Assembly: GCF_024223415.1 (NCBI RefSeq)
Contig: NZ_CP100500.1
DNA: 64,000 nucleotides
DNA from: Escherichia coli
Lineage (GTDB): Bacteria; Pseudomonadota; Gammaproteobacteria; Enterobacterales; Enterobacteriaceae
Strand: one strand, 5' to 3'
Shown: piece after piece, positions 3,214 to 53,899 of the stretch
Position numbering within the stretch: the stretch's first letter is position 1
Layout: each line of letters begins with the position of its first letter
Translations under genes and position numbers: made by a program
The notes under the pieces: model-generated
Database searches by the model: none
Told to the model about the DNA's origin: nothing
The model's input: the letters and a program-made list of their open reading frames with translations, nothing else

Positions 3214-5595
3214 ATGGATACGCCAGACGAAAAGGAACGCATTACATTTCCGCAAGTATCACGACGTAGTTTTTTACAAGCGACTTCCGCGCTTATCACT
3301 TTGCCTTTTATTTCTTCTACCGCAAAGGCGCAATCCCCAGATGCGTCGCCAGAAGTTACAGCTCCAGTAGCTGATAAAGTCGTGCCCACCTGTAGCACAT
3401 TTGACTGCGGTGGTAAGTGCGATATTCGGGCGCATATGCGCGACGGCGTGGTGACGCAAATTACCACACTTCCCGATAACGAACTCGATTCACAAATGCC
3501 GATTATGCGCGCCTGTGTTCGTGGTCGCGGCTATCGTAAATTTGTTTATCATCCTGACCGTTTGAAATATCCGATGAAGCGGGTAGGTAAACGAGGGGAG
3601 GGAAGATTTGAGCGTATCTCATGGGATGAGGCGACGACCTTAATTGCCGATAAACTGAAAAGGATCACGCAACAATATGGCCCGGCTTCACGTTATGTCC
3701 ATGTCGGGACGGCTGTTTCTGGTGGAACATTTTCTGGCGATGCGATGGCGCGTCGGCTGTTAAATTTAACCGGTGGTTATCTTGAATATTATCACTCAGT
3801 TAGTCTGGGTAATACTGCGGCCGCCACGCCTTACACGTATGGCGTGGCGGCCAGCGGTAACTCGATGGATACTCTTCTGGATACCAAACTGGTGATCCTC
3901 TGGGGGCATAACCCAACGGAAACCATATTCGGTCACACCAATTACTATTTTCAAAAAATGAAGCAAAACGGTACACGTTTTATCGTGGTGGATCCGCGCT
4001 ATTCCGACACCGTATCTTCACTTGCCGATCAGTGGATCCCGCTGTTGCCGACCACGGACAATGCGTTGATGGACGCGATGATGTACGTCATTATCAGCGA
4101 GAATCTCCACGATAAGACATTTATCGACACATATATTCTCGGTTTTGATGAAAACTCTATGCCAGAAGGCGTACCAGCCAACGAATCGTTGGTTGCCTAC
4201 CTTTTTGGCGCAAAAGATGGGATACACAAAACGCCGGAATGGGCAGAAAAAATTACCCACGTTCCAGCACAATCCATTCGTCAACTGGCACGCGATTACG
4301 CCACTACAAAACCCGCAGCGTTGATTCAGGGATGGGGGCCACAGCGACATATTTGCGGCGAACGCACCGCCCGAGGTTCAACTTTACTGGCCTCGATTAC
4401 CGGTAACGTCGGCATCAAAGGTGGCTGGGCGGCAGGTTACGGCGGTAGTTCTAATCGTAAATTCTGCGTTGGACCAGATATGCCAGAAAATCCGGTACAA
4501 GCGAAAATCTCGATTATGAACTGGATGCAGGCGGCGGATGATGCTTCTAAAGTTACGCCGCAAGATGGGCTTAAAGGTGTCGATAAACTCGACAGTAATA
4601 TCCGCCTGCTGTTCTCACTGGCAGGTAATTATCTGGCGAACCAGAACCCGGACGTCCACCAGGCCGCGAAGCTCCTTGAAGACGAATCTAAAATAGAATT
4701 CATCGTACTCAGCGATCTGTTCATGACTCCGAGCGCGAAATATGCCGATGTGTTGCTGCCGGAAACCAGCTTTATGGAACGCTGGAATATCGGCGAAACA
4801 TGGGGAACTGCGAGCTATCTTATTCTGTCAGAAAAACTGATTGAGCCGGATTTTGAACGTCGCACCGATTATGACTGGTTGCGTGACGTGGCGAAAAAAC
4901 TGGGTGTCGAAGCCGAGTTCAGTCAAGGACGTGATGAGAAGCAATGGATCGAGCATATCTGGGAGCAAACTCGTCTGGCGATGCCGGATGAAAATTTGCC
5001 GGACTTCGCGACCCTGCAAAAAACACGTCGACATCTTTTCAAAAGCGCGCCGCACATCGCTTTCGAAGCAAATATTCGCGATCCGCAGAATAATCCTTTC
5101 CCGACGCCTTCCGGCAAAATTGAGATCTTCTCTAAGCGTCTTTTTGATATGCAAGATCCAGAAATTCCCGCGCTTTCGCACTATGTCCCTGCCTTTGAAG
5201 GGCCAGAAGATAAACTGACGGCGAAATACCCGCTGCAGCTCATCACCTGGAAAGGGAAAAACCGTGCTAATTCCACCCAGTATGCTAACCCGTGGCTGCA
5301 AGAAGTTCAGACGCAAAAACTCTGGCTGAATCCGCAAGATGCAAAACAGCGCGGGATTAGCGAAGGAGATAGCGTAAAAATTTATAACGATCGTGGTGTG
5401 AGCATTATCCCGGTGGAAATAACCCCCCGTATCATCCCTGGCGTAGTTGCTATGCAGGCGGGGGCATGGTGGCAACCGGATGCACAAGGTATCGATCGCG
5501 GAGGCTGTGCCAATGTACTGAGTTCGACCCGCATTACGGCGCTGGCGAAAGGGAATTCGCATCAAACAATGCTGGTGGAGGTTGAGAAAGCATGA
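3214..5595 (+). CDS. Tat-exported molybdopterin oxidoreductase catalytic subunit, DMSO reductase family (DmsA/YnfE-like), substrate unknown
   Basis: 793-aa ORF with twin-arginine motif SRRSFLQ near the N-terminus, then a CxxxxCxxxC...C cysteine cluster typical of DmsA-type FeS sites; stop overlaps the next start (ATGA at 5592-5595). Confidence 0.85.
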   Translation: MDTPDEKERITFPQVSRRSFLQATSALITLPFISSTAKAQSPDASPEVTAPVADKVVPTCSTFDCGGKCDIRAHMRDGVVTQITTLPDNELDSQMPIMRACVRGRGYRKFVYHPDRLKYPMKRVGKRGEGRFERISWDEATTLIADKLKRITQQYGPASRYVHVGTAVSGGTFSGDAMARRLLNLTGGYLEYYHSVSLGNTAAATPYTYGVAASGNSMDTLLDTKLVILWGHNPTETIFGHTNYYFQKMKQNGTRFIVVDPRYSDTVSSLADQWIPLLPTTDNALMDAMMYVIISENLHDKTFIDTYILGFDENSMPEGVPANESLVAYLFGAKDGIHKTPEWAEKITHVPAQSIRQLARDYATTKPAALIQGWGPQRHICGERTARGSTLLASITGNVGIKGGWAAGYGGSSNRKFCVGPDMPENPVQAKISIMNWMQAADDASKVTPQDGLKGVDKLDSNIRLLFSLAGNYLANQNPDVHQAAKLLEDESKIEFIVLSDLFMTPSAKYADVLLPETSFMERWNIGETWGTASYLILSEKLIEPDFERRTDYDWLRDVAKKLGVEAEFSQGRDEKQWIEHIWEQTRLAMPDENLPDFATLQKTRRHLFKSAPHIAFEANIRDPQNNPFPTPSGKIEIFSKRLFDMQDPEIPALSHYVPAFEGPEDKLTAKYPLQLITWKGKNRANSTQYANPWLQEVQTQKLWLNPQDAKQRGISEGDSVKIYNDRGVSIIPVEITPRIIPGVVAMQAGAWWQPDAQGIDRGGCANVLSSTRITALAKGNSHQTMLVEVEKA

Positions 5596-6221
5596 GCCAA
5601 TTTAAAGAATTTGCATCTGTCAGCGACAAACAATTAGGGTTCTTTATTGACTCTTCGCGTTGTTCGGGCTGTAAAGCGTGTCAGGTGGCCTGTAAAGACA
5701 AAAACAACCTTGAGGTTGGGCGACGTTTTCGCCGCGTGTATGAAGTGAACGGCGGTGGCTTCATCGCCACTGGAGAGGGCGGTGTGAGTCATAATGTCTT
5801 TGCTTATACCCTTTCTGTTTCCTGTAACCATTGCGCGGATCCGATCTGTACCAAAAATTGCCCGACGATAGCGATGCATAAGCGTCCCGGAGACGGCATT
5901 GTGCGCGTGAATACTGATAAGTGCGTCGGTTGCGGTTACTGCGCCTGGTCCTGTCCTTACGGCGCACCACAAATGAATGAGCAGACCGGGCAGATGTCGA
6001 AATGCGATTTCTGTATTGATCTGCAAGCTAAAGGAGAACAACCCATTTGCGTGGCAACGTGCCCGTTGGGGGCGATTAAGTTCGGCCCTATTGATGAGTT
6101 GCGTGAAAAGTATGGCGATGTCAGTGATGTGAAAGGTTTACCTGATTCGTCGATTACGCAGCCAAATCTGGTGATTAAACCGCATCAGGGCGCGGAAAAG
6201 GAGGCGTCACATCATGCATGA
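5592..6221 (+). CDS. Four-cluster 4Fe-4S ferredoxin electron-transfer subunit (DmsB-like)
   Basis: 209-aa ORF with several CxxCxxCxxxCP motifs; translationally coupled to both neighbours. Confidence 0.85.
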   Translation: MSQFKEFASVSDKQLGFFIDSSRCSGCKACQVACKDKNNLEVGRRFRRVYEVNGGGFIATGEGGVSHNVFAYTLSVSCNHCADPICTKNCPTIAMHKRPGDGIVRVNTDKCVGCGYCAWSCPYGAPQMNEQTGQMSKCDFCIDLQAKGEQPICVATCPLGAIKFGPIDELREKYGDVSDVKGLPDSSITQPNLVIKPHQGAEKEASHHA

Positions 6222-10049: not shown

Positions 10050-11063
10050 ATGAATACTGAAGCCACGCACGACCAAAATGAAGCACTTACTACCGGCGCT
10101 CGCCTGCGTAATGCTCGCGAACAACTAGGACTTAGTCAGCAGGCCGTTGCCGAGCGACTTTGCCTGAAGGTTTCCACGGTACGCGACATTGAAGAAGATA
10201 AGGCACCCGCCGATCTTGCTTCAACATTCCTGCGCGGATATATCCGCTCTTATGCGCGTCTGGTACATATTCCAGAAGAAGAACTGCTGCCAGGGCTGGA
10301 AAAGCAGGCTCCACTACGGGCTGCAAAAGTTGCGCCGATGCAGAGTTTTTCCCTCGGTAAACGCCGCAAAAAACGCGACGGCTGGCTGATGACCTTCACC
10401 TGGCTGGTGTTGTTTGTGGTTATCGGCCTGAGCGGTGCCTGGTGGTGGCAAGACCACAAAGCTCAGCAGGAAGAGATCACCACTATGGCCGATCAATCTT
10501 CGGCGGAACTGAGCAGTAATAGCGAGCAGGGGCAGAGTGTTCCGTTAAATACGTCGACAACTACAGACCCGGCTACAACGTCCACGCCGCCAGCGTCTGT
10601 GGATACTACCGCAACCAACACGCAAACACCTGCCGTAACTGCGCCAGCACCAGCTGTTGATCCGCAACAGAATGCGGTTGTTTCGCCTTCGCAGGCAAAT
10701 GTTGATACCGCCGCGACCCCGGCACCAACGGCAACAACAACGCCAGATGGTGCTGCGCCGTTGCCAACCGATCAGGCTGGCGTGACCACGCCGGCGGCTG
10801 ATCCGAATGCGCTGGTGATGAACTTTACTGCCGATTGCTGGCTGGAGGTCACTGATGCTACCGGTAAAAAATTGTTTAGCGGTATGCAGCGTAAAGACGG
10901 TAATTTGAACTTAACCGGCCAGGCACCGTACAAACTGAAAATTGGTGCGCCAGCCGCAGTACAGATCCAGTATCAAGGGAAACCTGTCGATCTGAGTCGT
11001 TTTATCAGAACTAACCAGGTTGCGCGTCTGACCCTCAATGCCGAACAATCACCGGCGCAGTAA
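10050..11063 (+). CDS. rodZ: Cytoskeleton protein RodZ (HTH, single TM, Pro/Thr/Ala-rich periplasmic linker)
   Basis: 337-aa ORF with N-terminal XRE-type HTH, a hydrophobic segment and a low-complexity linker; lies between rlmN and ispG. Confidence 0.9.
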
Positions 11064-39515: not shown

Positions 39516-39547
39516 GCCCGACGAACTGTTTCGCCGGGCTGATTTTT
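39516..39547. terminator. Bidirectional terminator between perM and focB
   Basis: Hairpin gcccgacgaa / ttcgccgggc followed by TGATTTTT. Confidence 0.5.
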
Positions 39548-40395
39548 CAGGATTCCTGACGTAAATAAATAGCCCGATAACATATACTCACCAGCACTGC
39601 ACCGCCGATAATATTACCCAGCATCACCGGGAGCAGATTGGCGGTAATAAAATGGCTTACCGTCAGTGCCGGAAAATTGTCTGCGCTACTGTGCGCCAGT
39701 TGCCAGAAGGAGGTAGGGGCGAAATGGCGAATGGCAATGGCGAACGGAATCACAAACAAATTGGCGATACAGTGCTCAAAGCCACTGGCGACAAACAGGG
39801 TGATGGGCAAAATCATGGCGACGATTTTGTCGCATAACGAACGCCCGCAATAACTCATCCACAGCGCCAGGCAAACCATCAGATTGCACATAATGCCGAG
39901 GCTGACAGATTCAGTAAATGTATGATGCATTTTGCCCTCGGCGCAGTGTAAAACCGCGACTCCCCACATCGCGTTTTCACTCATCACCAGCCCGGAAAAC
40001 CAGATTAACAAACTGAAACAGGCAATACCTGCCAGATTACCGCAGGCCACCAGAAGTGCGTTAATCAGCCAAGTTCGCCAACTAATAAGGCCCCGACTTT
40101 TTGCCATCACCGTCATTACCGACGAGGTGAACAGGCTGGTGCCGCAAACCGCCAGCAAAATAAAGCCGAGTGTAAAGCAAAGGCCGCCCACCAGATGGGT
40201 TAATGCCTGTGAAGACGGGGCATCGGCGATAACGGAAAGGTAAAAAGTAAATCCGATCGCCATAAACACGCCAGCGGACATCGCCATTAAAAAGACCGAC
40301 ACTTTACTGCGGGCAATTTTATGGGCGGCAATCCGTTCAGCGATTGCCGCTTTTCTGGCGCTCAACTGCAAGTCGAAAGAGAGTTTGTTTCTCAT
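39547..40395 (-). CDS. focB: Formate channel FocB
   Basis: 282-aa FNT-family membrane protein, last gene of the hyf locus. Confidence 0.9.
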   Translation of the reverse strand: MRNKLSFDLQLSARKAAIAERIAAHKIARSKVSVFLMAMSAGVFMAIGFTFYLSVIADAPSSQALTHLVGGLCFTLGFILLAVCGTSLFTSSVMTVMAKSRGLISWRTWLINALLVACGNLAGIACFSLLIWFSGLVMSENAMWGVAVLHCAEGKMHHTFTESVSLGIMCNLMVCLALWMSYCGRSLCDKIVAMILPITLFVASGFEHCIANLFVIPFAIAIRHFAPTSFWQLAHSSADNFPALTVSHFITANLLPVMLGNIIGGAVLVSICYRAIYLRQES

Positions 40396-40416
40396 GCATA
40401 CTCCTGCAAAAACAGA

Positions 40417-42429
40417 TTACAACACCTCGCGAACCGAGATCCCCAGCCGCTGCATTCGTGACAGCAGCGTGGTGCGCTTCATCCCTAATCGCGTCGCTGC
40501 GCCACGGGGCCCGGCAACAATGCCATTGGTTTCTCGCAATACCTGAACAATGCGCTGACGTTCTTCTTCGTCATTCTCTGGCGTCGTCGGGTGCAGTAAC
40601 TGCGCCATTGAACTGCGAAGCGCTGAATCTTCATTTAGCGTCGGCAGTAAACGGCTTTGTCGGACATTAAGATGTAAATTCAGACTGTTACCGCGAGTCA
40701 GTAGTACCGCTCGCTCAATCACGTTTTCCAGCTCGCGCACGTTGCCCGGCCAGTCCCACGACATCAACTGGCGTAGCGCCTCGGTCGGGATGGCGTCAAT
40801 TGCGCGATTCATATGGCGCGCCATTTTTTGCGTGAAATGCTTTGCTAAAAGAGGGATATCTTCCGGACGGTCGCGCAGTGGCGGCAGTTCCAGTGGGAAG
40901 ACATTCAGGCGATAAAAGAGATCGCTGCGAAACTGGCGATCTTCAACCATTTGCCACAAATCACGGTTGGTGGCGGCAATGACTCTGACATTTACCGGGA
41001 TCGTTCTACTCCCGCCGAGACGCTCAATTTCCCGTTCCTGCAATACGCGCAGCAGTTTAGGCTGAAGTTCTAACGGCAGATCGCCAATTTCATCGAGAAA
41101 CAACGTGCCGCCATCGGCAATTTCAAAACGACCACGATGGGTATTAATCGCACCAGTAAATGCCCCTTTGTCATGACCGAATAACTCACTTTCCAGAAGA
41201 CTGGCGGGGATGGCAGCGCAGTTGATTTTGACCAGCGGCTTGTCGCGTCGTGGGCTAAGTTGATGGATCGCTCTGGCGATCACCTCTTTGCCGGTTCCGG
41301 TTTCACCACAAATCAACACCGTACTGTCGCTCTTCGCCACAATATCTACCTGCTGGAGCAAATCTTCCATTGCCTGGCTTTGATAGATAATGTCACCGAC
41401 GCCCAGATTCGAAAGGAGCTGCTCGCTAAGCTGGTGGTTTTCTTGCTGCAAGCTTTCCTGCAAATCGGTCATGCTGCGCCAGGCATCGGCATTGCCAACG
41501 GCAATAGCGATGCGATCGGCAATATGTTGTAGTAGCTGGCAGTTTTCCTCACTAAAGAGAGTGGAAGATGTATGCGCCAGCAACAATGCACCCGGTGTAT
41601 GGTTGCCAAAGGTGAGCGGTATAAGGAGCGCAGATTCGCAGCCGTTAGATGCAAGTAAGTGTAATAACGGGTCGCGTTGCCAGAGAAACAGATCGTCTGC
41701 ACGGTGCGTCAAGGTCGGTTGTCGGGTTTGTAGCGTTTGTGTCAGCAATACACTTTCGCCAGGCATACTGCGTGGCAGACATGCACAATCTGAGGCGGAA
41801 AAAACGCTGCACCACAGGCTGAACTTCTCGTTCTTTCGATGATCGCCCAGTACCATACAGACTGAAGCCAGACCGAAAAAATGATGGATCTCACGAGCGA
41901 CGTCAGCGATCAGATCGTCGAGATCAAGATGTGACAACACTGCATTAGTGATATCCACCAGTACCCGATGATGATCGCGATCTTTCTCCAGCAAACGCAG
42001 CGCCACCTGCTGTTCTTCATCATTGAGCCATGATTGCAGAACCGGGGTGATTATCCGCGCCAGCCAGTTAAACAGTGTGCAATCCTGGGGAGTAAAACGG
42101 CTGCCGTGAGTGCGAATAAAGCGTAGCTCCGCCATTCCACTACTGCCGAGAAGGACGGCGTGACGCGAATAATCGACCATCTCGCCCTGATACTCTGTTG
42201 TTGCCGTCACATCGCTGCCATCATCATGGTAGCGGTAATAGAAGTTGCTTTTGAGAACATGCAGTTCAATAAGTTGTACCGGGCTGAACGGCGGCGGCAG
42301 CGGGATGAAGGCGCGTAATAAAGACGCCTTGCCGTGTTTCTGCGCTAACCGCTCCGCGAGCATTCCGTTTACCGCTTCAATTGTTATTCCTTGTGGCGGG
42401 GCAAACATCGCCTCGTCTGACATAGCCAT
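40417..42429 (-). CDS. hyfR: Sigma-54-dependent transcriptional activator HyfR
   Basis: 670-aa product with GAF-like N-terminus, AAA+ sigma-54 interaction domain (GETGTGKE) and C-terminal HTH. Confidence 0.9.
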
Positions 42430-42458
42430 CAACAGTCCTTATTAATGAGAAATCCTTC

Positions 42459-42872
42459 TCACGCAATTTTTCTGGCCATCAGATAGATGGCCGGTTCCTG
42501 CACAATTTCATCCAACAGATGAATGAATTGAATGCTACGCGCCTGCCACGCCGACGTCGCGTCATCTGCCAGTGGCGCGAATGCCCGGGTCAACAGGGCG
42601 GTGTGGCTGGCGTCAATAACAATCTCACCAAAGGTCATCACCCCCAGCATCTTACGTCGGGCTTGCTTCTCTTCGACCTGTGCAAGCCAATCTTCGTATT
42701 CCGTCTGTGGGCAGCGGAAGGCGACATTCAGACAATCAATCACGCCAACGTGATGACCGATAGCCAACGAGTAATACATTACCTGGGAGCTGTGTTCCGG
42801 CATCTCGTCGCTACTGGCGATAAATTTTTTTCGCAGCGTCCAGAAAACAATTTCCCCGCACTCTTCAGTCAT
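42459..42872 (-). CDS. hyfJ: Hydrogenase-4 maturation/assembly protein HyfJ (HycH-like)
   Basis: 137-aa product from [11 protein letters not shown]; overlaps the hyfI stop by 8 nt. Confidence 0.85.
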
Positions 42873-43623
42873 GTAACCCCCGGAGTACGCGAAAGAGTTG
42901 CTGAACGATACTATTGAGACGTGGATCATCGGCATCGCGCAACCAGGTGTTAACCCGATTTCCTGTAGGATCGTCGCTTAAATGGCGCAGGAGCCGATCG
43001 CAAATTTCTCGCCCCTGACGATAGCCCGCCAGCCGCCGCGCTTCTCGCTCAATGGCGATACGCTGTGATGGCGGGATCTGCGGCCACAACGGTTGCATAG
43101 TCACCCCGGTGGGATCGCGATAATCCACCGCGTGAATCTTCTGTTGCAGCAAACCGAGCGCCACGGCGAAACCGTGAATGGTGGCGGCCGGTGTTGGCGG
43201 GCAGCCGGGGATCCAAACATCAATGGGGACAATGGTGTCGCTGCCGCCCCAGACGCTGTAGAGATCGTGGAAAATACCGCCGCCGACACCGCACGCGCCG
43301 TAGGAAACACAGATTTTATGATCGGGGGCAGACTCATACGCCCGAAGTGCAGGCATACGCATCGCCCGGGTGACTGCGCCAGTAAATAACAAAATATCGG
43401 CGTGACGCGGTGATGAAACAACCTTAATGCCAAAACGTTCTGCGTCGAATACGGGTGTGATGGCGGCAAAAATTTCGATTTCACAGGCGTTGCAGCCGCC
43501 GCAATCGACGCGATAAACGTAGGCTGAGCGACGGATATCCTGTAGCAAATGCCGCTTCATCTTTTGCGTTTGCTCGTCCAGCGTGATGGGCTGGCTGACA
43601 TGTTGTGTAAGCACTGGACTCAT
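42865..43623 (-). CDS. hyfI: Hydrogenase-4 small subunit (NuoB-like)
   Basis: 252-aa ORF with NuoB-type Cys motifs. Confidence 0.9.
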
Positions 43624-44165
43624 AGCTGCTCCTTAGCCACCAGCGGTACATCTGTATCGTCGTTGATCAGCGTCGCGCGTTGTTTGCACTCCGGGCAGAC
43701 GCTCGCTTGCGCCCGCAACATTTCGCGGTTTTGTGGCGCATTTTGTTGCTGTGCCAACAATTCAGCAGCCAGTGCGACGGTTTTTTGCGGGGCAAACGGG
43801 CGTTCGCAACGGCTGCAACGTTGTAGATGGAACGTCGCGCGGGTATAGAGATCGGCTTTATTGGTGACGGTCAGTTCAAAGTTATTGGTAAGCTGAATGG
43901 CTCTGGTCGGGCACACTTCTTCACAACGTCCGCAGTAAATACAACGCCCCAGATAGAGCTGCCAGGTGCGCGAATTTTGCTGGTCGTCGGTCTGGATAGT
44001 CAGCGCATTTGCCGGACAAGCACAGGCGCAGGCACCACAGGCAATACATTGGCTGGGCATCAGGTCCGGTTTCCCGCGAAAGCCTGGGCTGACCTCCAGT
44101 GGCGCGAAGGGATATTTCACCGTCGCGGTTCCGGCGCGCATAATAGTTTTCAGTAACTTCAGCAT
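43620..44165 (-). CDS. hyfH: Hydrogenase-4 ferredoxin-type subunit
   Basis: 181-aa ORF with two CxxCxxCxxxCP motifs. Confidence 0.9.
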
Positions 44166-44174
44166 CTTCTGTCC

Positions 44175-45890
44175 TTACTTCAGCGGCGAACGGTTACGAT
44201 CAATGCCGTAGCGTTCGATCTCTTTATACGGCACGGTTTTTGACTGGCGCTTGCGCACATCAACCAGCGTCACACGGTCGGTACAGGAGTAGCAGGGATC
44301 AAGGCTACCGATAATCAGCGGTGCGTCAGAAACGGTATTGCCGCGTAGCATGTAACGCAGCACCGGCCAGTTGGCGTAGGTGGCGGCACGACAGCGCCAG
44401 CGGAACAATTTTTGATTATCACCGAGCATGCTCCAGTGCACGTCTTCACCGCGTGGCGCTTCAACAAAGCCGAGTGCGAATGCGTGAGGTTTATAGCTAA
44501 AGCCTTCGGTCAGCAGCGGGGTATCCGGCATGTTGTCGAGGGCAAATTCCAGCATTGCCAGCGAATCAAACGTCTCTTTGACACGGACCATCACGCGGGA
44601 GAAGACATCGCCGCCGGTAAAGGTAAACAGTGTTTTTGGAATATTGCCGTAGTCGGCGTAGGGGTGATCAAAGCGCAAATCACGGGCAAAACCACTGCCG
44701 CGGATCAGCGGTCCTACGGGGCTATAATCACGGGCGATTTGTCGGTCGAGAATGCCAATGCCCTGAGTGCGTTGTTCCATATTCGGCGTGGCAAGCAGCA
44801 TTTCTACCAGCTCCGACACGTCGGCGCGCATCTCGCGCACCAGTTTCAGCGTTTGCAGACGTTGCTCTTTGAGAATATCGCGGCGAACACCACCAATCAG
44901 ATTCAGACCGTAGGTTTTACGCGACCCGGTCAGCAATTCCGCCATTGTCATCGACTTTTCCCGCACGCGGAAAAATTGCATAAAGCCGGTATCAAATCCA
45001 ACAAAATGGCAGGAGAGGCCAAGGTTGAGCAAATGACTGTGTAGCCGTTCGACTTCCAGCAGAATCGAGCGAATGGTATGCGCTCGTTGCGGCACCTCAA
45101 TCCCCAGTGCATTTTCAACCGAGTTGGTATAGGCCACACTGTGGGCAAAACCGCAAATCCCACACACGCGGTCCGATAAGAAGGTCACTTCGTTGTAGCC
45201 CATCCGCGTTTCTGCCAGTTTCTCCATGCCGCGATGGACATAAAACAGGCGGTAATCAGCATCGACAATTTGCTCGCCATCCACAAACAAGCGGAAGTGA
45301 CCCGGTTCATCGGAGGTGATATGCAGCGGGCCGACAGGGATCACCCGCGCATCGCTGTTGCCCTCATTGATAAACGGATACGTTTCGGAATCAGTCGTCG
45401 GTTCAGGGCGCAGTCGATAATCCATCGCATCTTTGCGCAGCGGATGCATATCTTCCGGCCAGTCATCGGGCAACACCAGGCGACGCTGATCCGGCAGGCC
45501 AACCGGAATCAGCCCGTACATATCGCGAATTTCTCGCTCGCCCCAGACCGCGGCAGGGACGCGCGGTGTGACTGACGGAAACTCCCGACTGTCGGCATCG
45601 ACCAGTGCCTTCACCACGATCCAGCATTTTTCGGCCCCTTCCATAGAAAGGGCATAATAAACCGCGTAATGACCGTTAAGTGTCCGCTCGTCGTTGCCAA
45701 ACAGGACCGGAAGCCAGCCATCATGTTGATAATAAAGATACTGTACAACGTCAGGCAGCAGATTGATTTTCACCGTAATGGTGACCTGTTCAGGCGTTTG
45801 TCGCTCTTCATCCAGCACCGCGCCGGGGAACTGCGTTTTCAGGGCGGCGAGAATCGCTTCGCCACGATTTGACGATGAATTAACGTTCAC
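44175..45890 (-). CDS. hyfG: Hydrogenase-4 large (NiFe) subunit
   Basis: NuoC/NuoD-like fusion with C-terminal DPCxxC; start placed at the GTG at 45890 preceded by GGAGA; the ORF-track ATG at 45935 has no Shine-Dalgarno. Confidence 0.85.
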
Positions 45891-47460
45891 TGTGTTTCTC
45901 CGAAACAGATGCGGTGCCTGAAGGCAAAAAATCATGCCAGGTGCTACGTTGTGCAGGCAGGTCGTGCGTCCCTGAGAGGACTATAGTGGAAGCGCCCGCC
46001 AGGATCCTGATGACAGGTTGTGGAATATGCGTTCCCATCGCCAGCATCATGACCAGCAGAATCACCATTGGCGAGGTGGTCAACCAGCCGAGATCACCCC
46101 GGTTAACGGCCTGCGGCGGTTTCGCCATTAACACCCGCGCAGCCATCCGTACCAGGCCCGCCAGCACCAGCGTTAACAGCAATAACAGCATGACGATAAT
46201 CAGCAGGTGATTACGCGCCAGTCCGGCGGTAACGGTCATAAATTCGCTAAGAAAAATGTTGAAGGGCGGCATCCCGGCCAGCGCCAGCGCACCGCCGCCA
46301 AACAGCACGGCGGTAAATGGCATGATTTTGAGCATCCCGCAGACGACGTTGAGATCGCGCGTGCCGTACTTGAGCAGTACATTGCCGGAACCGCAGAACA
46401 GCAGCGTTTTTGCCAGACTGTGGTTTAAGGTGTGCAGCAGCGCGGCAAAAATTCCCAGCGGCCCGCCAATGCCTAGCGCCACCGCGACCAGTCCCATGTT
46501 CTCCACGCTGGAGTACGCCAGCAGACGCTTAATGTCCCGCTGTACCAGAATGAAAAATGCCGCCACGGCAACCGACAACATGCCGAAGATGAGCAACAAC
46601 CGGTTGGGGAAATCGCTGCCGATGGCCTGGCAAATAATGATGTAATAGCGAATCAGCACCAACAGCGCGCAGTTCAGCAATACGGCGGAGAGTAGGGCGC
46701 TGACCGGACTCGGCGCTTCACTGTGAGCATCCGGCAGCCAGGCGTGCATGGGAAATAGCCCGGTTTTGGTACCAAAGCCAATTAGCACAAACACAAAGGC
46801 CAACAGCATTAATGTTGGGTCAAGCAAGGACGATTGCTTAAGAACCTCGCTCCAGAATATCGCCATTTCTGCCTGCGGCATAACGCTGGCGGCGTTGGCG
46901 TATACCAGCACGGTACCGAACAGACCAAAAGCGACACCAACAGTACAAATAATGATGTACTTCCATGCTGCTTCCAGCGATGAACGCTGACCGTAAATGC
47001 CTACCAGAAACGCCGAGCTTAAGGTGGTGGCTTCGATCGCCGCCCACATCACAATCAGGTTATTGCTGGTAACAACCAGCAGCATGGTGAACAAAAACAG
47101 ATGGAAGAAACCGTAGTAATCGCACAGCGTAACGGGTGAAAGCTCGCCGTGAGCCACTTCATGACGCATGTAGCCAATCGAGTAAACACCGGTGAGAAAG
47201 CCAATCACACCAAGAATGGCGAGGAACAAACCGCCCAGACCATCAATATGAAGCCACAGTCCCGCAGCGAATATTTCTCCTGCATCAGCGGCAGTTTGGA
47301 CCACCCAGAGTGCCAGAATCAGCAGCAGTGTGATCCCTAAGCAATGTAATACGGTCACCGTGCGAGTCGCAGAGTGCCCCCGTTTCCGGCAGGCAAAACA
47401 GAGCAGCGAAAAAAGCAGCGGCGTGAGCAGGAGTAAAGCGAACATCACAGAATAACTCAT
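45880..47460 (-). CDS. hyfF: Hydrogenase-4 membrane subunit HyfF (NuoL/M/N antiporter-like)
   Basis: 526-aa polytopic ORF. Confidence 0.9.
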
Positions 47461-47464
47461 CTCA

Positions 47465-48115
47465 TTATCCCTTCAGCGCGGTCAAGTTGTTCACGTCCAG
47501 CGTGCCGTGGGTACGCCATATTTTTCTTGCCAGTAACACCATCACAATGACGGCGAAGATGGCGTCGGTAGCGATACCTATTTCCACCAGTTCCGGTGCT
47601 CGCCAGGCAAGAAGCGCCAGCACCAGATGGGAGCCGTTTTCCATCAGGCAGTAACCAAAAATTTGCCGCAGGATATTGCGCTGGCTGACAATGCACAGCA
47701 GGCCAAGCAGAAAATGACCTAACGCCACCGCCAGCGCCGGTTTCAGCCCGGTAGCCATCGGTAGCTTCACGGGCTGAACGACAAATGCGCAAAGCAGGAC
47801 AATTAACGCCGCGAGCAGTGCCATCATTGCCGGACCGAATAACGCTTTTTCCGGGATGTTCTGGGGAATATTTCGTGCAGCGTAAGTCATGATTAACGGT
47901 ACCAGCAGCACTTTGGTGATAAAGGCGCTGGCGGACCAGATCAGCAGTTGCTCTGCGGCGAACAGGCACGAGAGAGTGGCGAAAATAGACACCAGCACCA
48001 GCGACTGGCAGACGTAAAATCCGCATGACAGGCGATAGCTTTTGACGCTAATCACAAACAGCGATGTCAGCATCATCAGTCCCGCCAGATTATTTACGAT
48101 CGTAGAACCGGTCAT
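47465..48115 (-). CDS. hyfE: Hydrogenase-4 membrane subunit HyfE
   Basis: 216-aa hydrophobic ORF. Confidence 0.9.
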
Positions 48116-48126
48116 TCATCATCTCC

Positions 48127-49566
48127 TTACTGCAACCAGGTCGCGGCGATTACGCTGGAAATCAGCGACATCACAATCAGTACAATCAGCACCAGGCGCA
48201 TTGACCCTGGCAGCGGTGCGGCATCGGCGACGGCCTCGCTCGGTTTGCCCGGCACGACGCGACCAAACCAGCGAATAAACCAGGCGAAACTGGCGACCGA
48301 TTCAATCATCAGCAGAATCATGGCGGGCAGCAGGATCCAGTACTCCACTGACAACGCAAAACCGGCGGCAAACAGCGGGAATTTACTGAAGAAGCCGTTG
48401 AACGGCGGCACACCGGTAATCGCCAGCGCTGCCACGCAGAAACCCACGCCTGGCAACGGCAGGGTGTGCAATACGCCACGCAGACGCGGCAACAAGCGCG
48501 TGCCGCAGCTGTAACTCAGCGCACCTGCTACAAGGAAAAACAGGCTTTTAGCGAACGCGTGGTTGACGATGTAGGCGATGCTACCCTCCAGCGCCAGCCG
48601 CGAGCCGAAGATGGAGAGCGACAAGCCGAAGAACATCCAGCCAAGTTGAGTGATGGTCGACCAGGCCAGCAACCGCTTCATATCCTGCTGTGGCAAATAC
48701 ATCAGAAATCCATAAAGAATGGTGACCAGGGCCATGACCATGCCAACGCCGCCAATCACATGCGGGATATTGCCACCGTCGATAATGGCGCGGGCAAAAA
48801 TGTAAACGCCCACTTTCACCATCGATGCGGCGTGGAGATAGGCGCTGATCGGTGTTGGCGCTTCCATTGCGTCCGGTAGCCACGCTTGCATCGGTAGTTG
48901 GGCCGATTTCCCCCACGCGGCAAACAGGATGCCGCCATAAACCAGATAACGTGCGTCGCCGTGTAACTCGCTCATCGCGCTAAGCGCAAACGTTCCGGTC
49001 TGCAAAAACAGCGTGGCGGCGGCAAGATACAATCCCAGCGAACCGATATGGGTGATAAGTAACGCTTTTAGTGCTGAACGCTGCGCTTTATCGCTCTGGT
49101 AATAACTGATCAACGCCCAGGAGCAGCCGCCCGTAATTTCAAAAAACAACAACTGACCGAGCAGCGTCGAGGAGAGTACCAGTCCCGCCATCGCGCCGAT
49201 AAAAACCAGCAAAAATGCGTAATAACGATTCGTACCGTTATGCGGGTGTTCGCGATTTTTATCCGTCAGATAACCCGTGGAGTAGATCGTGACCAGCAAA
49301 CCGAGAAACACCACCACAAACAGAATCAGCGTACTCACGCGATCAATGAGCAGGCCAAACAACGCCACATCCCCCACGTTGACCAACGTCAACGTGACGG
49401 CAACTTTATCGGCCTGATAAAACGCGGAGATCAGTGACAACATGCACAGCGTGGTCAGCGCGGCGAACAAAACCCCCCATTCGGCGGCCCGACGTTGTGG
49501 CGAAAACGAAACGACCAGTGCGCCGATAAAAGGCATCATTAACGTCGTCAGAGCAAGATTTTCCAT
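48127..49566 (-). CDS. hyfD: Hydrogenase-4 membrane subunit HyfD (antiporter-like)
   Basis: 479-aa polytopic ORF. Confidence 0.9.
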   Translation of the reverse strand: MENLALTTLMMPFIGALVVSFSPQRRAAEWGVLFAALTTLCMLSLISAFYQADKVAVTLTLVNVGDVALFGLLIDRVSTLILFVVVFLGLLVTIYSTGYLTDKNREHPHNGTNRYYAFLLVFIGAMAGLVLSSTLLGQLLFFEITGGCSWALISYYQSDKAQRSALKALLITHIGSLGLYLAAATLFLQTGTFALSAMSELHGDARYLVYGGILFAAWGKSAQLPMQAWLPDAMEAPTPISAYLHAASMVKVGVYIFARAIIDGGNIPHVIGGVGMVMALVTILYGFLMYLPQQDMKRLLAWSTITQLGWMFFGLSLSIFGSRLALEGSIAYIVNHAFAKSLFFLVAGALSYSCGTRLLPRLRGVLHTLPLPGVGFCVAALAITGVPPFNGFFSKFPLFAAGFALSVEYWILLPAMILLMIESVASFAWFIRWFGRVVPGKPSEAVADAAPLPGSMRLVLIVLIVMSLISSVIAATWLQ

Positions 49567-49582
49567 ATTCCGTCAGTGCTCC

Positions 49583-50530
49583 TTACAGACCGGTTAACCA
49601 GAAGACCCATGCAAGCGCAGCAAGGCTGAAGCCAAGCCAGGTCACATGGTGAATGAGTAAAAAACGCCCGCGTGCCAGCGTGTTTTCTGCGATAGAGGCC
49701 AGAACAAAAATCAGCAAAACCTTGAGCAGCGTAACGACAAGTGAAGTCAGCAGGCAGGCGAGAGAAAGTTCTTGCGCGCGCCCAAAGGGCAGAAACAGGG
49801 CCACAAACAGTGCTGCCATCACGACCTGTTTCAGCCCCAGCCCCCATTTCGCTAGCGCCAGCCCGGCACCGGAATATTCTGTCAGCGGGCCTTCCTGTAA
49901 TTCCTGTTCTGCTTCAGCAACATCAAAGGGAATTTTTCCCATCTCAATGAAGCAGGCAAAACCACAGGCCAGTAACGCCAGTACGGTGGTTAGCGGCGAG
50001 TTCCAGCCCGTTGCCAGCGTATTGCTGATCATCTCGATATGCGTGGAACCTGCTATCAGCGCCAATACCAGCAGTGAGAGAATGAGCATGGGTTCGACCA
50101 GAATGCCGAGCGTCAACTCGCGACTGGCACCGACTCCCGCAAACGGGCTTCCGGTATCCAGCCCTGAAAGAGCAAAGAAAAAACGAAACAGGGCAAGAAG
50201 ATAGATAAGGGTGATCAGATCGCCGCCGCCCGCAAAAGGGGAAACGGTAATAAATAGTGGTAGGGCCATCGCCAGCACCAGCATGCTGCTGATTAATACC
50301 CACGGCATCAGGCGGAACATCAGACCTGAAGATGTCGGCGCAACTTCCTGCCGTTTAAACAGTTTGTGGATATCGCGATAATCCTGCCAGATCCCCGGTC
50401 CGCGGCGGGAGTGCATTCGCGCGCGTATCTGCCGGGAAATACCCGTAAAAAGTGGGGTTAGCATCAGCAGAATCACGGCCTGTGCTAACTCAAAAATGAC
50501 CAGATATCCGTCGCAAAGAGTTTGTCTCAT
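49583..50530 (-). CDS. hyfC: Hydrogenase-4 membrane subunit HyfC (NuoH-like)
   Basis: 315-aa product from MRQTLCDGYLV; the ORF track extends 7 codons upstream. Confidence 0.9.
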   Translation of the reverse strand: MRQTLCDGYLVIFELAQAVILLMLTPLFTGISRQIRARMHSRRGPGIWQDYRDIHKLFKRQEVAPTSSGLMFRLMPWVLISSMLVLAMALPLFITVSPFAGGGDLITLIYLLALFRFFFALSGLDTGSPFAGVGASRELTLGILVEPMLILSLLVLALIAGSTHIEMISNTLATGWNSPLTTVLALLACGFACFIEMGKIPFDVAEAEQELQEGPLTEYSGAGLALAKWGLGLKQVVMAALFVALFLPFGRAQELSLACLLTSLVVTLLKVLLIFVLASIAENTLARGRFLLIHHVTWLGFSLAALAWVFWLTGL

Positions 50531-50540
50531 GGTGATTTCC

Positions 50541-52559
50541 TTAGACGGCAATAGCGATTAGCAGCACAACCAGTGCGGCGACCACATACAGGCAATAGAG
50601 ACGAAAGTCGCCGCTTTGCAGATGCTGTATTTCTTTGGCCAGCCGTTGGGTGGCGCTCACGATGGGGCGGATCACCCGCTCATCCCAGAAGGGTTCTGTG
50701 CTCTGAGCCCTGGCGGTGACGTGCGCAAGACCTTTATTTAGCCTCAGCGTAGGGTCGAGCTGTTGTCGTAGACGAAATAGCGCAGAGAAGACCACACGCA
50801 GCGGCTGCATCACGCCATTGCCTGACGGGGCCATCGCATTTTCCCAGCCGTAGCCGCATGCCCAGGCATCTCCTGTGCGACGAAACGCTGCGCGGCGCGA
50901 ACGACACCACAGCCAGTAAAGGCCAGGCAGCAAAGGCATCGCCAGTAGTAACAGCAACAGTAATGAGGGGGTGACCTGTGTATGAAACGTGCCGGGTACA
51001 AGTGCTATTCCGCTGGCGACAGTGACGGGAGGGGTATTGGTAAACGCATGGGCAATATGCATTATCTTCGGTGCCAGCCAACTGGCACTAAGCGCAATTA
51101 ATACGCAGAGTGCCGCGAGCAGTAGCATGGCGACGATCATCGTATTTGGCACTTCCTGTGCCTCTTCAGCGTGTGTACTGCGCGGCGCACCACAGAAAGT
51201 AATACCGTACATTTTGACGAAGCACATTACTGCCAGCCCACCAGTGACTGCCAGCATCACCATAGCAATAGGACCCGCAAGTTGTAGCGCTACGGCTTCC
51301 ACACGACTTAGTGAGAACAGCGACTGCCAGGTGTACCATTCGCTGATAAAACCATTCAGCGGAGGAAGGGCTGATATCGCGAGGCAACCAATCAGGCATG
51401 CTGCGGCTGTCCACGGCATCCGTTTTGCCAGTGCCCCCATTTTTTCCATGTCGTGGGTATGCAAACGCGAAATAATCGCACCCGCGCCGAGAAATAGCAG
51501 CCCTTTGAACAGCGCATGGTTGAGCAGATGAAACAGTGCGCCGAGCAGTCCAACCACGGTGAGCAGCGGGTCGTGCAGTGACAGACCGACCATCGCCACA
51601 CCGACTGCCAGCAAAATAATGCCGACGTTTTCGACGGTACTCCAGGCCAGCAGCCGTTTGATATCCTGTTCCGCCAGCGCATATAGCACGCCCAGGAGCG
51701 CGGAGATTGCGCCGATCGCCATCACCAGAATGCCCCACCACAGAGGCAAACCCGTTTGCGCCAGCAGATCCATCGCTACTTTCAGGATGCCGAAAATACC
51801 GATTTTGACCATTACGCCAGACATCAACGCCGAAGCGTGCGATGGTGCGGCAGGGTGAGCGCGCGGCAACCAGCTGTGCAACGGCATCATCCCGGCTTTC
51901 GCGCCAAAACCGAAAAAGGCCAGCAGGAACACCGCCGACGCCAGCCCCGGAGAAAGTGAAAGCGTGCGGAAACTGGCAAAATCTAGGCTGCCGCTTTCGC
52001 GCCCCATCAGCAAGAAGGCGATCATAATCAGCACCGATCCGGCGTGGGCGATAAAAAAGTAGAGCATGCCAGCGTTGATCGACGTTTTATCCTGCCTGGC
52101 AATGACCAGAAACCAGGAAGACAGCGACATCATTTCAAACAGCACGATGAACCAAAAAGCGTTGTCCATCACCAGCAGGGCAACCATCGATGCGATGAAA
52201 ATATTCATAAAGAAGCCCATCGCCGCCGCGCCTTTGCCCTCGTATTCGCGCATATAAGTCAATGAATAGAGCGAACAAACCACCACCAGCAAGGAGATAA
52301 CCAGCACCATAAATGCCGAGAGGCTATCCATTCGCAGGGTTAAATCGGCAAAGTCAAAAGGGGTGGCAAAACGGGCGACTAAAGTTACGCCTGCATGTAA
52401 TTGCGTAATTCCGCTGATGATGCCAATCACGCCGCCCACCAGCGATGTGATGCCGGAAAGCTTAATAGCCAGTCTGTCCAGACCGAGTAAAAACAGCGAA
52501 GCCAGACTGGCAAACAGATAGAGGATCAGCGACCAGGTTAATAATTGCAGGGCATCCAT
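50541..52559 (-). CDS. hyfB: Hydrogenase-4 membrane subunit HyfB (antiporter-like)
   Basis: 672-aa polytopic ORF; start overlaps the hyfA stop. Confidence 0.9.
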   Translation of the reverse strand: MDALQLLTWSLILYLFASLASLFLLGLDRLAIKLSGITSLVGGVIGIISGITQLHAGVTLVARFATPFDFADLTLRMDSLSAFMVLVISLLVVVCSLYSLTYMREYEGKGAAAMGFFMNIFIASMVALLVMDNAFWFIVLFEMMSLSSWFLVIARQDKTSINAGMLYFFIAHAGSVLIMIAFLLMGRESGSLDFASFRTLSLSPGLASAVFLLAFFGFGAKAGMMPLHSWLPRAHPAAPSHASALMSGVMVKIGIFGILKVAMDLLAQTGLPLWWGILVMAIGAISALLGVLYALAEQDIKRLLAWSTVENVGIILLAVGVAMVGLSLHDPLLTVVGLLGALFHLLNHALFKGLLFLGAGAIISRLHTHDMEKMGALAKRMPWTAAACLIGCLAISALPPLNGFISEWYTWQSLFSLSRVEAVALQLAGPIAMVMLAVTGGLAVMCFVKMYGITFCGAPRSTHAEEAQEVPNTMIVAMLLLAALCVLIALSASWLAPKIMHIAHAFTNTPPVTVASGIALVPGTFHTQVTPSLLLLLLLAMPLLPGLYWLWCRSRRAAFRRTGDAWACGYGWENAMAPSGNGVMQPLRVVFSALFRLRQQLDPTLRLNKGLAHVTARAQSTEPFWDERVIRPIVSATQRLAKEIQHLQSGDFRLYCLYVVAALVVLLIAIAV

Positions 52560-53176
52560 TAGCGTTGCTCCTGAGTGAGGGAAAGGGGATCCTCCCCGCC
52601 ATTGGCAAACCAGCTTGCGGCAAGGCGCTGTTTTTCTTTCATCTGACGTTGCAGGCTATCGTCGGTGATCAGCCGTAACGCCTGATTCGGGCAAGCGCGA
52701 ACGCAGGCCGGACCTTCTGGCAAGAAATCACACAGGTCGCATTTCACCGCGACGGTCTGGACACCCGGTTCCCAGCGCAGCAAAGCATGTTGTGTTGGCG
52801 CGTTTTCTTCGCCGTCTTTGAGTGAGCCTTCAGCCTGAAAAACATATTGCGCAGGGGCATTCACCGGACGGCTTCCTGAAGCGCTGATTGCGCCAAATGG
52901 GCAGACCACGGCGCAAAGCTTGCAGCCAATACAGAGGCTTTCGTTGAGTTGGATCGCATCATCCCTCTGGGAGATGGCATTGACCGGGCAGACCTGCAGG
53001 CAAGGGGCTTCCTCACAGTGATGACACACGACAGGGGCAGTGAGTGTTGACGTCTTCGCCAGGGCCAGGCGCGGGTGTTGCTGTAAACCTTGCGTTTTAT
53101 GCACGTCCGAACAGGCAGCGAGACAGGTATTACATCCTGTACACCACAGTGGTTCGGCCACCACAAAGCGGTTCAT
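52559..53176 (-). CDS. hyfA: Hydrogenase-4 ferredoxin-type subunit HyfA
   Basis: 205-aa product from MNRFVVAEPLWCTGC with multiple 4Fe-4S motifs; the ORF track extends 13 codons upstream. Confidence 0.9.
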   Translation of the reverse strand: MNRFVVAEPLWCTGCNTCLAACSDVHKTQGLQQHPRLALAKTSTLTAPVVCHHCEEAPCLQVCPVNAISQRDDAIQLNESLCIGCKLCAVVCPFGAISASGSRPVNAPAQYVFQAEGSLKDGEENAPTQHALLRWEPGVQTVAVKCDLCDFLPEGPACVRACPNQALRLITDDSLQRQMKEKQRLAASWFANGGEDPLSLTQEQR

Positions 53177-53428
53177 GTCGGCTCCTTGAAAATGATATGA
53201 AACATTGCATTTCATATTGCATAAAGGATGCTAGTCTGATTAATTTAATATATTCAATAAGTTATGAGTTAACTGGATTCTGAGCGGTACAAAAATGATG
53301 GTCATTAACGTTCAGCAAAAAATGGATTCGACACCCGTGTCGCAGGGGAAAGTGAGAATGTGATCTTGGTCACGAGAAGTGAGGTGTGCTGACCACAAGC
53401 GCAGCCAGCACGGAATGGAGCAAAGTAA

Positions 53429-53899
53429 TCAGGCGTGTTCTTTCAGCCAGTTCAGCACAACGTCGTGGTGATTGCTGGTTTTGAAATCGTCAAAGACATG
53501 TTCGATTTTGCCATCAGCGTCAATCAGGAAGCTGATGCGATGAATACCATCGTAGGTTTTGCCCATGAAGGACTTTTCCCCCCAGACGCCGAATTGTTCG
53601 CACACCTGGTGGTCCTCATCAGACAGGAGCGTAAAGTTAAGCAGCTCTTTTTCCGCAAAACGGGAGAGTTTTTCGGGTTTATCGGTGCTGATACCCAGCA
53701 CATCAACGCCCGCTTTTTTCAACTCATCCATGTTATCGCGTAAGCCGCAGGCCTGTACGGTACAGCCGGGGGTCATGGCTTTCGGGTAGAAATAAACCAG
53801 AACACGCTGTCCCTGGAAGTCGGTCAAATTAACTTGTTCTCCGTCTTGATCCGGCAAGCTAAATTTCGGTGCGGTATCACCGGCTTTCAGTGGATTCAT
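53429..53899 (-). CDS. bcp: Thiol peroxidase Bcp (peroxiredoxin)
   Basis: 156-aa ORF with the peroxiredoxin active-site region (AMTPGCT). Confidence 0.95.
   Translation of the reverse strand: MNPLKAGDTAPKFSLPDQDGEQVNLTDFQGQRVLVYFYPKAMTPGCTVQACGLRDNMDELKKAGVDVLGISTDKPEKLSRFAEKELLNFTLLSDEDHQVCEQFGVWGEKSFMGKTYDGIHRISFLIDADGKIEHVFDDFKTSNHHDVVLNWLKEHA

Follow-up and report, generated by a model that had tools for sequence, protein, structure and literature searches.

In the window, by which we mean the whole 64,000-nt stretch of Escherichia coli DNA that was analysed, the operon for hydrogenase-4 (hyf) is preceded by an orthologue of the promoter P_hyf that carries a G-to-A change, very probably a promoter-down lesion, in front of an otherwise complete operon, one of many lesions that affect hyf. 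The window allele is a mutated copy of a known promoter, that is, a natural variant which is neither a canonical sigma-54 promoter nor new in kind. As read directly from the sequence, and as an earlier note on this DNA had given it, the minus strand at 53233..53218 is TAGCAT-N5-ATGCA, with the -24 hexamer TAGCAT at 53233..53228, followed by CCTTT and by the -12 element ATGCA at 53222..53218, 31 nt 5' of the hyfA ATG. Extended by one base, the -24/-12 element assigned here to sigma-54 from the K-12 alignment and from matrix scores comprises 17 nt (CTAGCATCCTTTATGCA, 53218..53234, minus strand) and is the orthologue of ATGGCATCCTTTATGCA, the P_hyf element of K-12. The variant base, identified by alignment and by population counts of 55-mers, is the A at 53232 (minus strand), which takes the place of the first of the two G's at -24 and turns TGGCAT into TAGCAT. 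The -12 element is intact (GC at 53220..53219) and invariant in all five aligned strains, and 10 nt separate the -24 dinucleotide (53232..53231) from the -12 GC, the spacing found in 135 of 135 ChIP-derived motifs. Thus, of the features that define sigma-54 promoters, the window allele has the -12 GC and the spacing but shows AG in the place of the -24 GG.

The hyfA coding sequence (52559..53176, minus strand, 205 aa) is present in the list of open reading frames and was recovered by tblastn with K-12 HyfA at full length and 98.5% identity; its ATG occupies 53176..53174 and is preceded by an AAGGAG Shine-Dalgarno sequence at 53187..53182. The gene upstream, bcp (thiol peroxidase; 53429..53899, minus strand, from the open reading frame list and the RefSeq annotation of orthologous loci), has a stop codon that ends at 53429, so that the bcp-hyfA spacer extends over 252 nt, from 53177 to 53428. 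By the rule of Bonocora et al., which counts 19 nt downstream from the centre of the motif (53226), transcription is predicted to begin at 53207 on the minus strand, 31 nt before the hyfA ATG; the 5' untranslated region of about 30 nt proposed earlier agrees with this computed leader, which in turn has the length of 31 nt tabulated for K-12.

The identity of the element follows from comparison with other strains. The spacer of the window was aligned with those of K-12 MG1655, E. coli B, O157:H7 FRIK2533 and SCU-316, the last being the best database match, and in the resulting 286-nt alignment, with 97% mean column identity, the element stands in register in five of five strains. K-12, B, O157 and SCU-316 all have TGGCAT-CCTTT-ATGCA, and TAGCAT occurs in the window only of the five. 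Over 401 nt, the G/A at 53232 is the one and only difference between the window and SCU-316, and the AG remarked upon in the earlier note is therefore exactly what sets the window apart from its best match. In all matches, bcp and hyfA are annotated as the flanking genes, and the synteny of the P_hyf orthologue is accordingly kept.

In K-12, P_hyf is reported to depend on rpoN and HyfR, a result attributed to Skibinski in 2002, and its start was reportedly located by primer extension, some 30 bp upstream of the hyfA gene. The 17-mer ATGGCATCCTTTATGCA coincides in K-12 with OS23, a ChIP-seq peak for sigma-54, which has an occupancy score (FAT) of 16, a start predicted 31 nt from hyfA, and also the flag 'C', denoting experimental confirmation in EcoCyc (Bonocora et al. 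2015, PMC4591121). In genomic SELEX, the bcp/hyfA spacer gives the highest peak of the RpoN holoenzyme with NtrC present and reaches 92% of the top peak with the RpoN holoenzyme alone (Shimada et al. 2021, PMC8743547); the ChIP-seq and gSELEX binding data both describe the G allele of K-12 only. Compared with P_hyf of the K-12 operon (hyfABCDEFGHIJR-focB; Skibinski et al. 2002, PMID 12426353), the window has the same locus, the same 31-nt distance, the same -12 box and the same upstream spacer architecture, with 15 of the 16 element bases equal and the first -24 G represented by A. The base 5' of the initial T is C in the window and A in K-12; this difference between haplotypes is common and slightly increases the matrix score (16.6 versus 15.4 bits, with the G restored). 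Judged by this orthologous position, the window element is the known sigma-54 promoter P_hyf of the hyf operon, and we accept it as real because of its base-for-base orthology with the K-12 promoter, rather than on the score alone.

The earlier note had left two options, namely that the element is not the promoter or that it is a weakened allele of it. If the first were right, hyfA would have its true sigma-54 promoter at another place in the spacer, which is barely conceivable. A search of 53177..53428 for GG-N10-GC on both strands returned nothing, and in a matrix scan of the spacer the second-best match scored 6.7 bits and lay on the opposite strand of the same DNA, overlapping the P_hyf element, so that no canonical alternative, which in the terms of the earlier note would have spoken against the element, was found between hyfA and bcp. 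Moreover, the K-12 ChIP-seq peak falls precisely on the orthologous 17-mer.

The matrix used for these comparisons is a log-odds PSSM derived from the 135 ChIP-bound sigma-54 17-mers of Tables 1 and 2 in PMC4591121, with which both strands were scanned. The window 17-mer obtains 11.39 bits, the top score in the spacer, and exceeds 12 of the 135 bound sites (9th percentile); among the 127,968 positions of the 64-kb window, 13 reach 11.39 bits or more, a rate at which about 0.03 sense-oriented matches would be expected in the 252-nt spacer. With the G restored, the same 17-mer reaches 16.62 bits, more than 116 of the 135 bound sites (86th percentile), and would be the best site of the entire 64-kb window; the change from G to A thus costs 5.2 bits. 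This cost reflects the composition of PSSM position 3, the first G, where 130 of the 135 bound sites have G, three have A and two have T; the second G is present in 134 of them. Occupancy in ChIP is correlated with the score (Spearman 0.54, p = 2e-11), and the six bound sites that lack a full GG have FAT values of 2-7, whereas K-12 hyfA has 16 and the intergenic sense sites have a median of 12.

Reduced binding of the holoenzyme would be expected in the window, since structural work shows the -24 DNA in contact with sigma-54's RpoN domain (PMC5505868), and since the G is almost invariant at this position. When the -24 GG (GA in one case) of three Myxococcus sigma-54 promoters was replaced with TT, activity fell approximately 3- to 11-fold, a mutagenesis that altered both bases to T and in another organism, while the window carries a single G-to-A change; characterised promoters with a single base changed in the GG or the GC do exist (PMC7910581). 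We propose the following sequence of events. The derived G-to-A substitution, which affects the leading G of the -24 dinucleotide in P_hyf, creates an AG that would bind the sigma-54 holoenzyme less well, and the weaker closed complex would then limit the output that HyfR or FhlA, acting from an upstream enhancer, could drive. With the rest intact, from the GC at -12 with its spacing and the palindrome farther upstream to hyfR and the 12 structural and accessory genes, the outcome would be a cis-acting promoter-down allele of a complete operon. Such an allele would be one of many hyf lesions in natural E. coli, in keeping with an operon that is apparently under weak selection. We infer the size of the loss in sigma-54 binding and transcription from the sequence: a clear weakening may be expected, and not necessarily a complete loss, as the window score is still within the range of the bound sites.

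Alternatively, AG might be tolerated, with sigma-54 binding adequate, HyfR/FhlA-dependent transcription near normal and the SNP neutral. We regard this as unlikely, although bound sites in K-12 with A (3/135) or T (2/135) at the first-G position do exist, one such non-G site, CCAGCACGGTTTTTGCA, scores as high as 14.45 bits, the window allele with its 11.39 bits ranks above 12 bound sites, and there is an active Myxococcus promoter whose -24 dinucleotide is GA (PMC7910581). The bound sites without GG, however, are poorly occupied (FAT 2-7), and in most of them the -12 box is a perfect TTGCA, which hyf, with its weaker ATGCA, does not share; furthermore, the G in 130 of 135 sites, the loss of 5.2 bits and the relationship between score and occupancy all point away from neutrality. 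The closest counterparts of the window allele among the bound sites of K-12, dhaM (TCAGCAT), yqeC (TGAGCAC) and ybhA (CCAGCAC), likewise combine AG at -24 with an intact -12 GC. These three sites are intragenic, have low occupancy (FAT 3-7), the consensus TTGCA as -12 box and no known transcript, whereas in the window the promoter is intergenic and has ATGCA.

The FhlA-dependent promoters of the formate regulon (hycA, hypA, fdhF and hydN) similarly consist of -24/-12 elements with a short leader, but all of them retain the GG (CTGGCAC, TTGGCAC, GTGGCAT and CTGGCAT) where the window has AG. Unlike these promoters, hyf has an activator gene of its own, hyfR, and its regulation by both FhlA and HyfR is stated in the title of the primary paper.

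The distribution of the A allele was determined in 5,426 complete E. coli genomes by megablast with SNP-centred 55-nt queries that have the variant base at position 28, such that each 28-nt seed must span the variant. The G allele (TGGCAT) was found in 3,721 genomes and the A allele (TAGCAT) in 14, these counts leaving out some 560 O157-type genomes, for which additional SNPs at -5 and +16 of the variant prevent seeding with either allele. A change of the second G to A (TGACAT; orthologous to window position 53231) is present in 88 of the 5,426 genomes, in two haplotype contexts. Searches centred in the same way on the -12 element yielded no genome out of 5,426 with G to A and none with C to T, and a control transition in the spacer yielded 56 genomes, mainly of one lineage (IAI39, SMS-3-5, CE10). 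On the evidence of the alignment and these counts, the AG is a derived and rare G-to-A substitution in P_hyf. Of the two options in the earlier note, the weakened allele is consequently the one that the comparison favours, through the orthology with K-12, the ratio of 14 A to 3,721 G genomes and the loss of 5.2 bits.

The A allele did not spread from a single source. Five A-allele sequences compared over 6 kb have 30-73 mutual differences, and the window itself differs by only about 4 positions in 24.9 kb from the G-allele strains NCTC9112, KV7, SCU-316, GPEC1446 and NCTC10444. Two A-allele isolates of O145:H28 are identical over 6,054 nt, with at least 12 other O145 genomes one base off and outside the list of A-allele genomes. 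Similarly, the two A-allele genomes WP2-W18-CRE-03 and 258E show no difference over 6,055 nt, and there are at least 28 genomes with the G allele that deviate from them at exactly one base. These sequence relationships show that the A allele originated independently on at least three backgrounds, those of the window, of O145:H28 and of WP2-W18-CRE-03/258E; FDAARGOS_943 and an O111:H8 strain probably represent two further origins.

The recurrence bears on whether the A at 53232 is a sequencing or assembly error in a strain that truly has TGGCAT. Such an error would account for the fact that the nearest relatives over 24.9 kb (NCTC9112, KV7, SCU-316, GPEC1446 and NCTC10444) are all outside the A-allele set and that SCU-316 differs at 53232 alone in 401 nt. 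Nonetheless, we consider an error very unlikely, because 14 complete genomes, assembled independently, share the substitution, among them two separately sequenced isolates of a single O145:H28 clone, and because it is a substitution in non-repetitive sequence and no homopolymer indel. The recurrence of the A allele argues that the A in the window is a real type of mutation, the proof for the window strain itself being a matter of its reads.

A further possibility is that the G-to-A change is a gain of function, in that it produces the sigma-70 -10 hexamer TAGCAT, which together with TTGAAT 18 nt upstream could lead to weak constitutive transcription of hyf by sigma-70. In TTGAAT-N18-TAGCAT, four of six positions match the consensus in each hexamer, the key A at position 2 is gained by the substitution, and selection for the gained function could explain the repeated independent origin. 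With 8 matches out of 12 and a non-optimal spacer of 18 nt, however, the putative promoter is under the threshold of the scan, which calls nothing in either allele and gives 0.7 hits by chance in shuffled sequences. In addition, the commoner second-G allele, TGACAT, makes no -10 box, and in one background the SNP stands before an already frameshifted hyfB, where expression could bring no benefit. We therefore hold a sigma-70 promoter to be highly improbable.

Altogether, alleles that destroy the GG are found in 102 genomes and have several origins. It could be argued from these numbers that the -24 GG of P_hyf is a recurrent mutational target in natural E. coli with the GC being spared, but we consider this generalization quite doubtful. 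If the excess at the GG were real, it might reflect selection to clear the sigma-54 holoenzyme from what is among its strongest genomic binding sites, or the shutting off of hyf by a minimal change; chance and mutational bias are alternatives, and the first-G change may instead create the sigma-70 -10 box discussed above. A Dcm (CCWGG) hotspot was also considered as the source of the recurrence and was rejected, the context on the other strand being, by eye, CCAGT or CCATT.

Downstream of the altered promoter, the operon is complete. tblastn with the 12 K-12 proteins located hyfABCDEFGHIJ-hyfR-focB at 39547..53176 on the minus strand with all 12 genes at full length, each of the 12 proteins being covered end to end at 96-100% identity to K-12, and with a lone indel, of +48 nt, in hyfG. 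The activator gene hyfR (40417..42429) is likewise full length and 98.8% identical to its K-12 counterpart.

The earlier note had suggested that a weakened promoter would fit the operon being largely silent. Poor expression and silence of hyf in K-12 are mentioned, with attribution to Skibinski 2002 and Self 2004, in two papers (PMC7384014, PMC7654741), and replacement of the K-12 hyf promoter with the hyc or T5 promoter still did not result in hydrogen production by Hyd-4 (Finney et al. 2020, PMC7654741). Since the silent K-12 operon has the canonical TGGCAT and strong sigma-54 binding, the SNP cannot explain the silence of hyf in general, and the suggested link is not supported; at most, the SNP adds one more lesion in the window strain.

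Other lesions of hyf are common. In approximately 1,127 of the 5,424 E. coli genomes, the match to the 401-nt query is confined to its bcp third, the hyfA side, leftwards from about 53300..53380 in window coordinates, being absent there, and presumably the whole hyf operon is missing at the bcp junction in about a fifth of the complete genomes. Among four A-allele genomes that were inspected, two, WP2-W18-CRE-03 and FDAARGOS_943, have a frameshifted hyfB, with different length changes. In the former (locus L007), the frameshift is in hyfB at 3701..5718 and hyfC (5729..6055) contains an internal stop; in the latter (locus L005), hyfB at 3701..5723 is annotated as frameshifted. The frameshift of the WP2 type is lineage-wide and not an artefact of assembly, as at least 28 genomes are identical save for the promoter SNP, and it predates the promoter SNP on this background, as the near-identical G-allele genomes share it. 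Taken together, the GG-destroying alleles, the hyfB frameshifts and the loss of the operon fit a decay of hyf in several E. coli lineages, as far as it can be read from genome sequences, and the population counts for these three kinds of lesion document it. The window allele is alone of little weight, being a natural promoter-down allele of a well-characterised promoter in front of an operon that is mostly regarded as cryptic. It does constitute a natural experiment, in which an intact operon, with a hyfG product of 571 aa and a single -24 lesion, can be set against the near-isogenic G-allele strains SCU-316 and NCTC9112, and such a comparison of A and G would measure what one -24 G is worth at the native promoter.

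Two further elements can be recognized in the upstream part of the spacer. The palindrome CGACAC-GG-GTGTCG (CGACACGGGTGTCG, 53329..53342, minus strand) has its centre about 128 nt upstream of where transcription is predicted to start and is invariant in five of five strains; it was found by eye and also by a terminator scan, its 14 nt having been missed by a generic repeat finder. The words TGTCG and CGACA of which it is made also fill the FhlA-controlled hycA-hypA spacer of K-12, and on this likeness the palindrome (53342..53329) is likely a candidate enhancer (UAS) for HyfR/FhlA. An FhlA binding consensus was sought in the Proteus paper PMC7658346, and none was found there. As the palindrome is followed by AATCCATTTTTT, with a T-run to about 53319, it was scored as a weak hairpin resembling an intrinsic terminator, situated 87 nt after the bcp stop, and it may accordingly be the bcp terminator, an enhancer for HyfR/FhlA, or both. 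Farther upstream, the sequence cGTGA-ccaaga-TCACA (53359..53374, minus strand), noticed by reading the sequence, has its midpoint some 159 nt upstream of that start and is conserved in the five-strain alignment except for one spacer base. From its agreement with the consensus TGTGA-N6-TCACA, we take 53374..53359 to be a putative CRP site.

The only length difference in the operon concerns hyfG (44178..45890, minus strand), where 48 nt at 44735..44688 are present in the window and in O157 and absent in K-12 MG1655 and B, the products having 571 aa with the segment (window, O157) and 555 aa without it (K-12 MG1655, B). The short form looks like a deletion, because a 10-nt direct repeat, GCCCGTGATT, flanks the segment, and the 16 residues missing from the short HyfG are conserved in the active paralogue HycE. 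A junction-spanning search, evaluated on evenly spaced rows, suggests that each form occurs in roughly half of the hyf-carrying complete genomes. The 48-nt difference is not mentioned in Finney et al. 2020 (PMC7654741), and a limited keyword search returned no other report of it. The deletion could explain why Hyd-4 of K-12 is inactive even under strong promoters.

The scan of the window also revealed sigma-54-like sites outside the bcp-hyfA spacer. One of them, ATGGCGCAGTTACTGCA (40592..40608, minus strand), is located in the 3' end of hyfR, 186 nt before focB, is identical in K-12 and scores 15.0 bits, above the median of the bound sites. It was considered as an internal promoter of focB and rejected, as a search by gene name did not find it in the tables of ChIP-seq sites given by Bonocora et al. 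or in their supplements, and it is probably not bound by sigma-54. The highest-scoring site in the window, with 16.1 bits, is TCGGCGCAACTTTTGCA (10322..10338, minus strand), which lies in antisense orientation within the open reading frame at 10050..11063.
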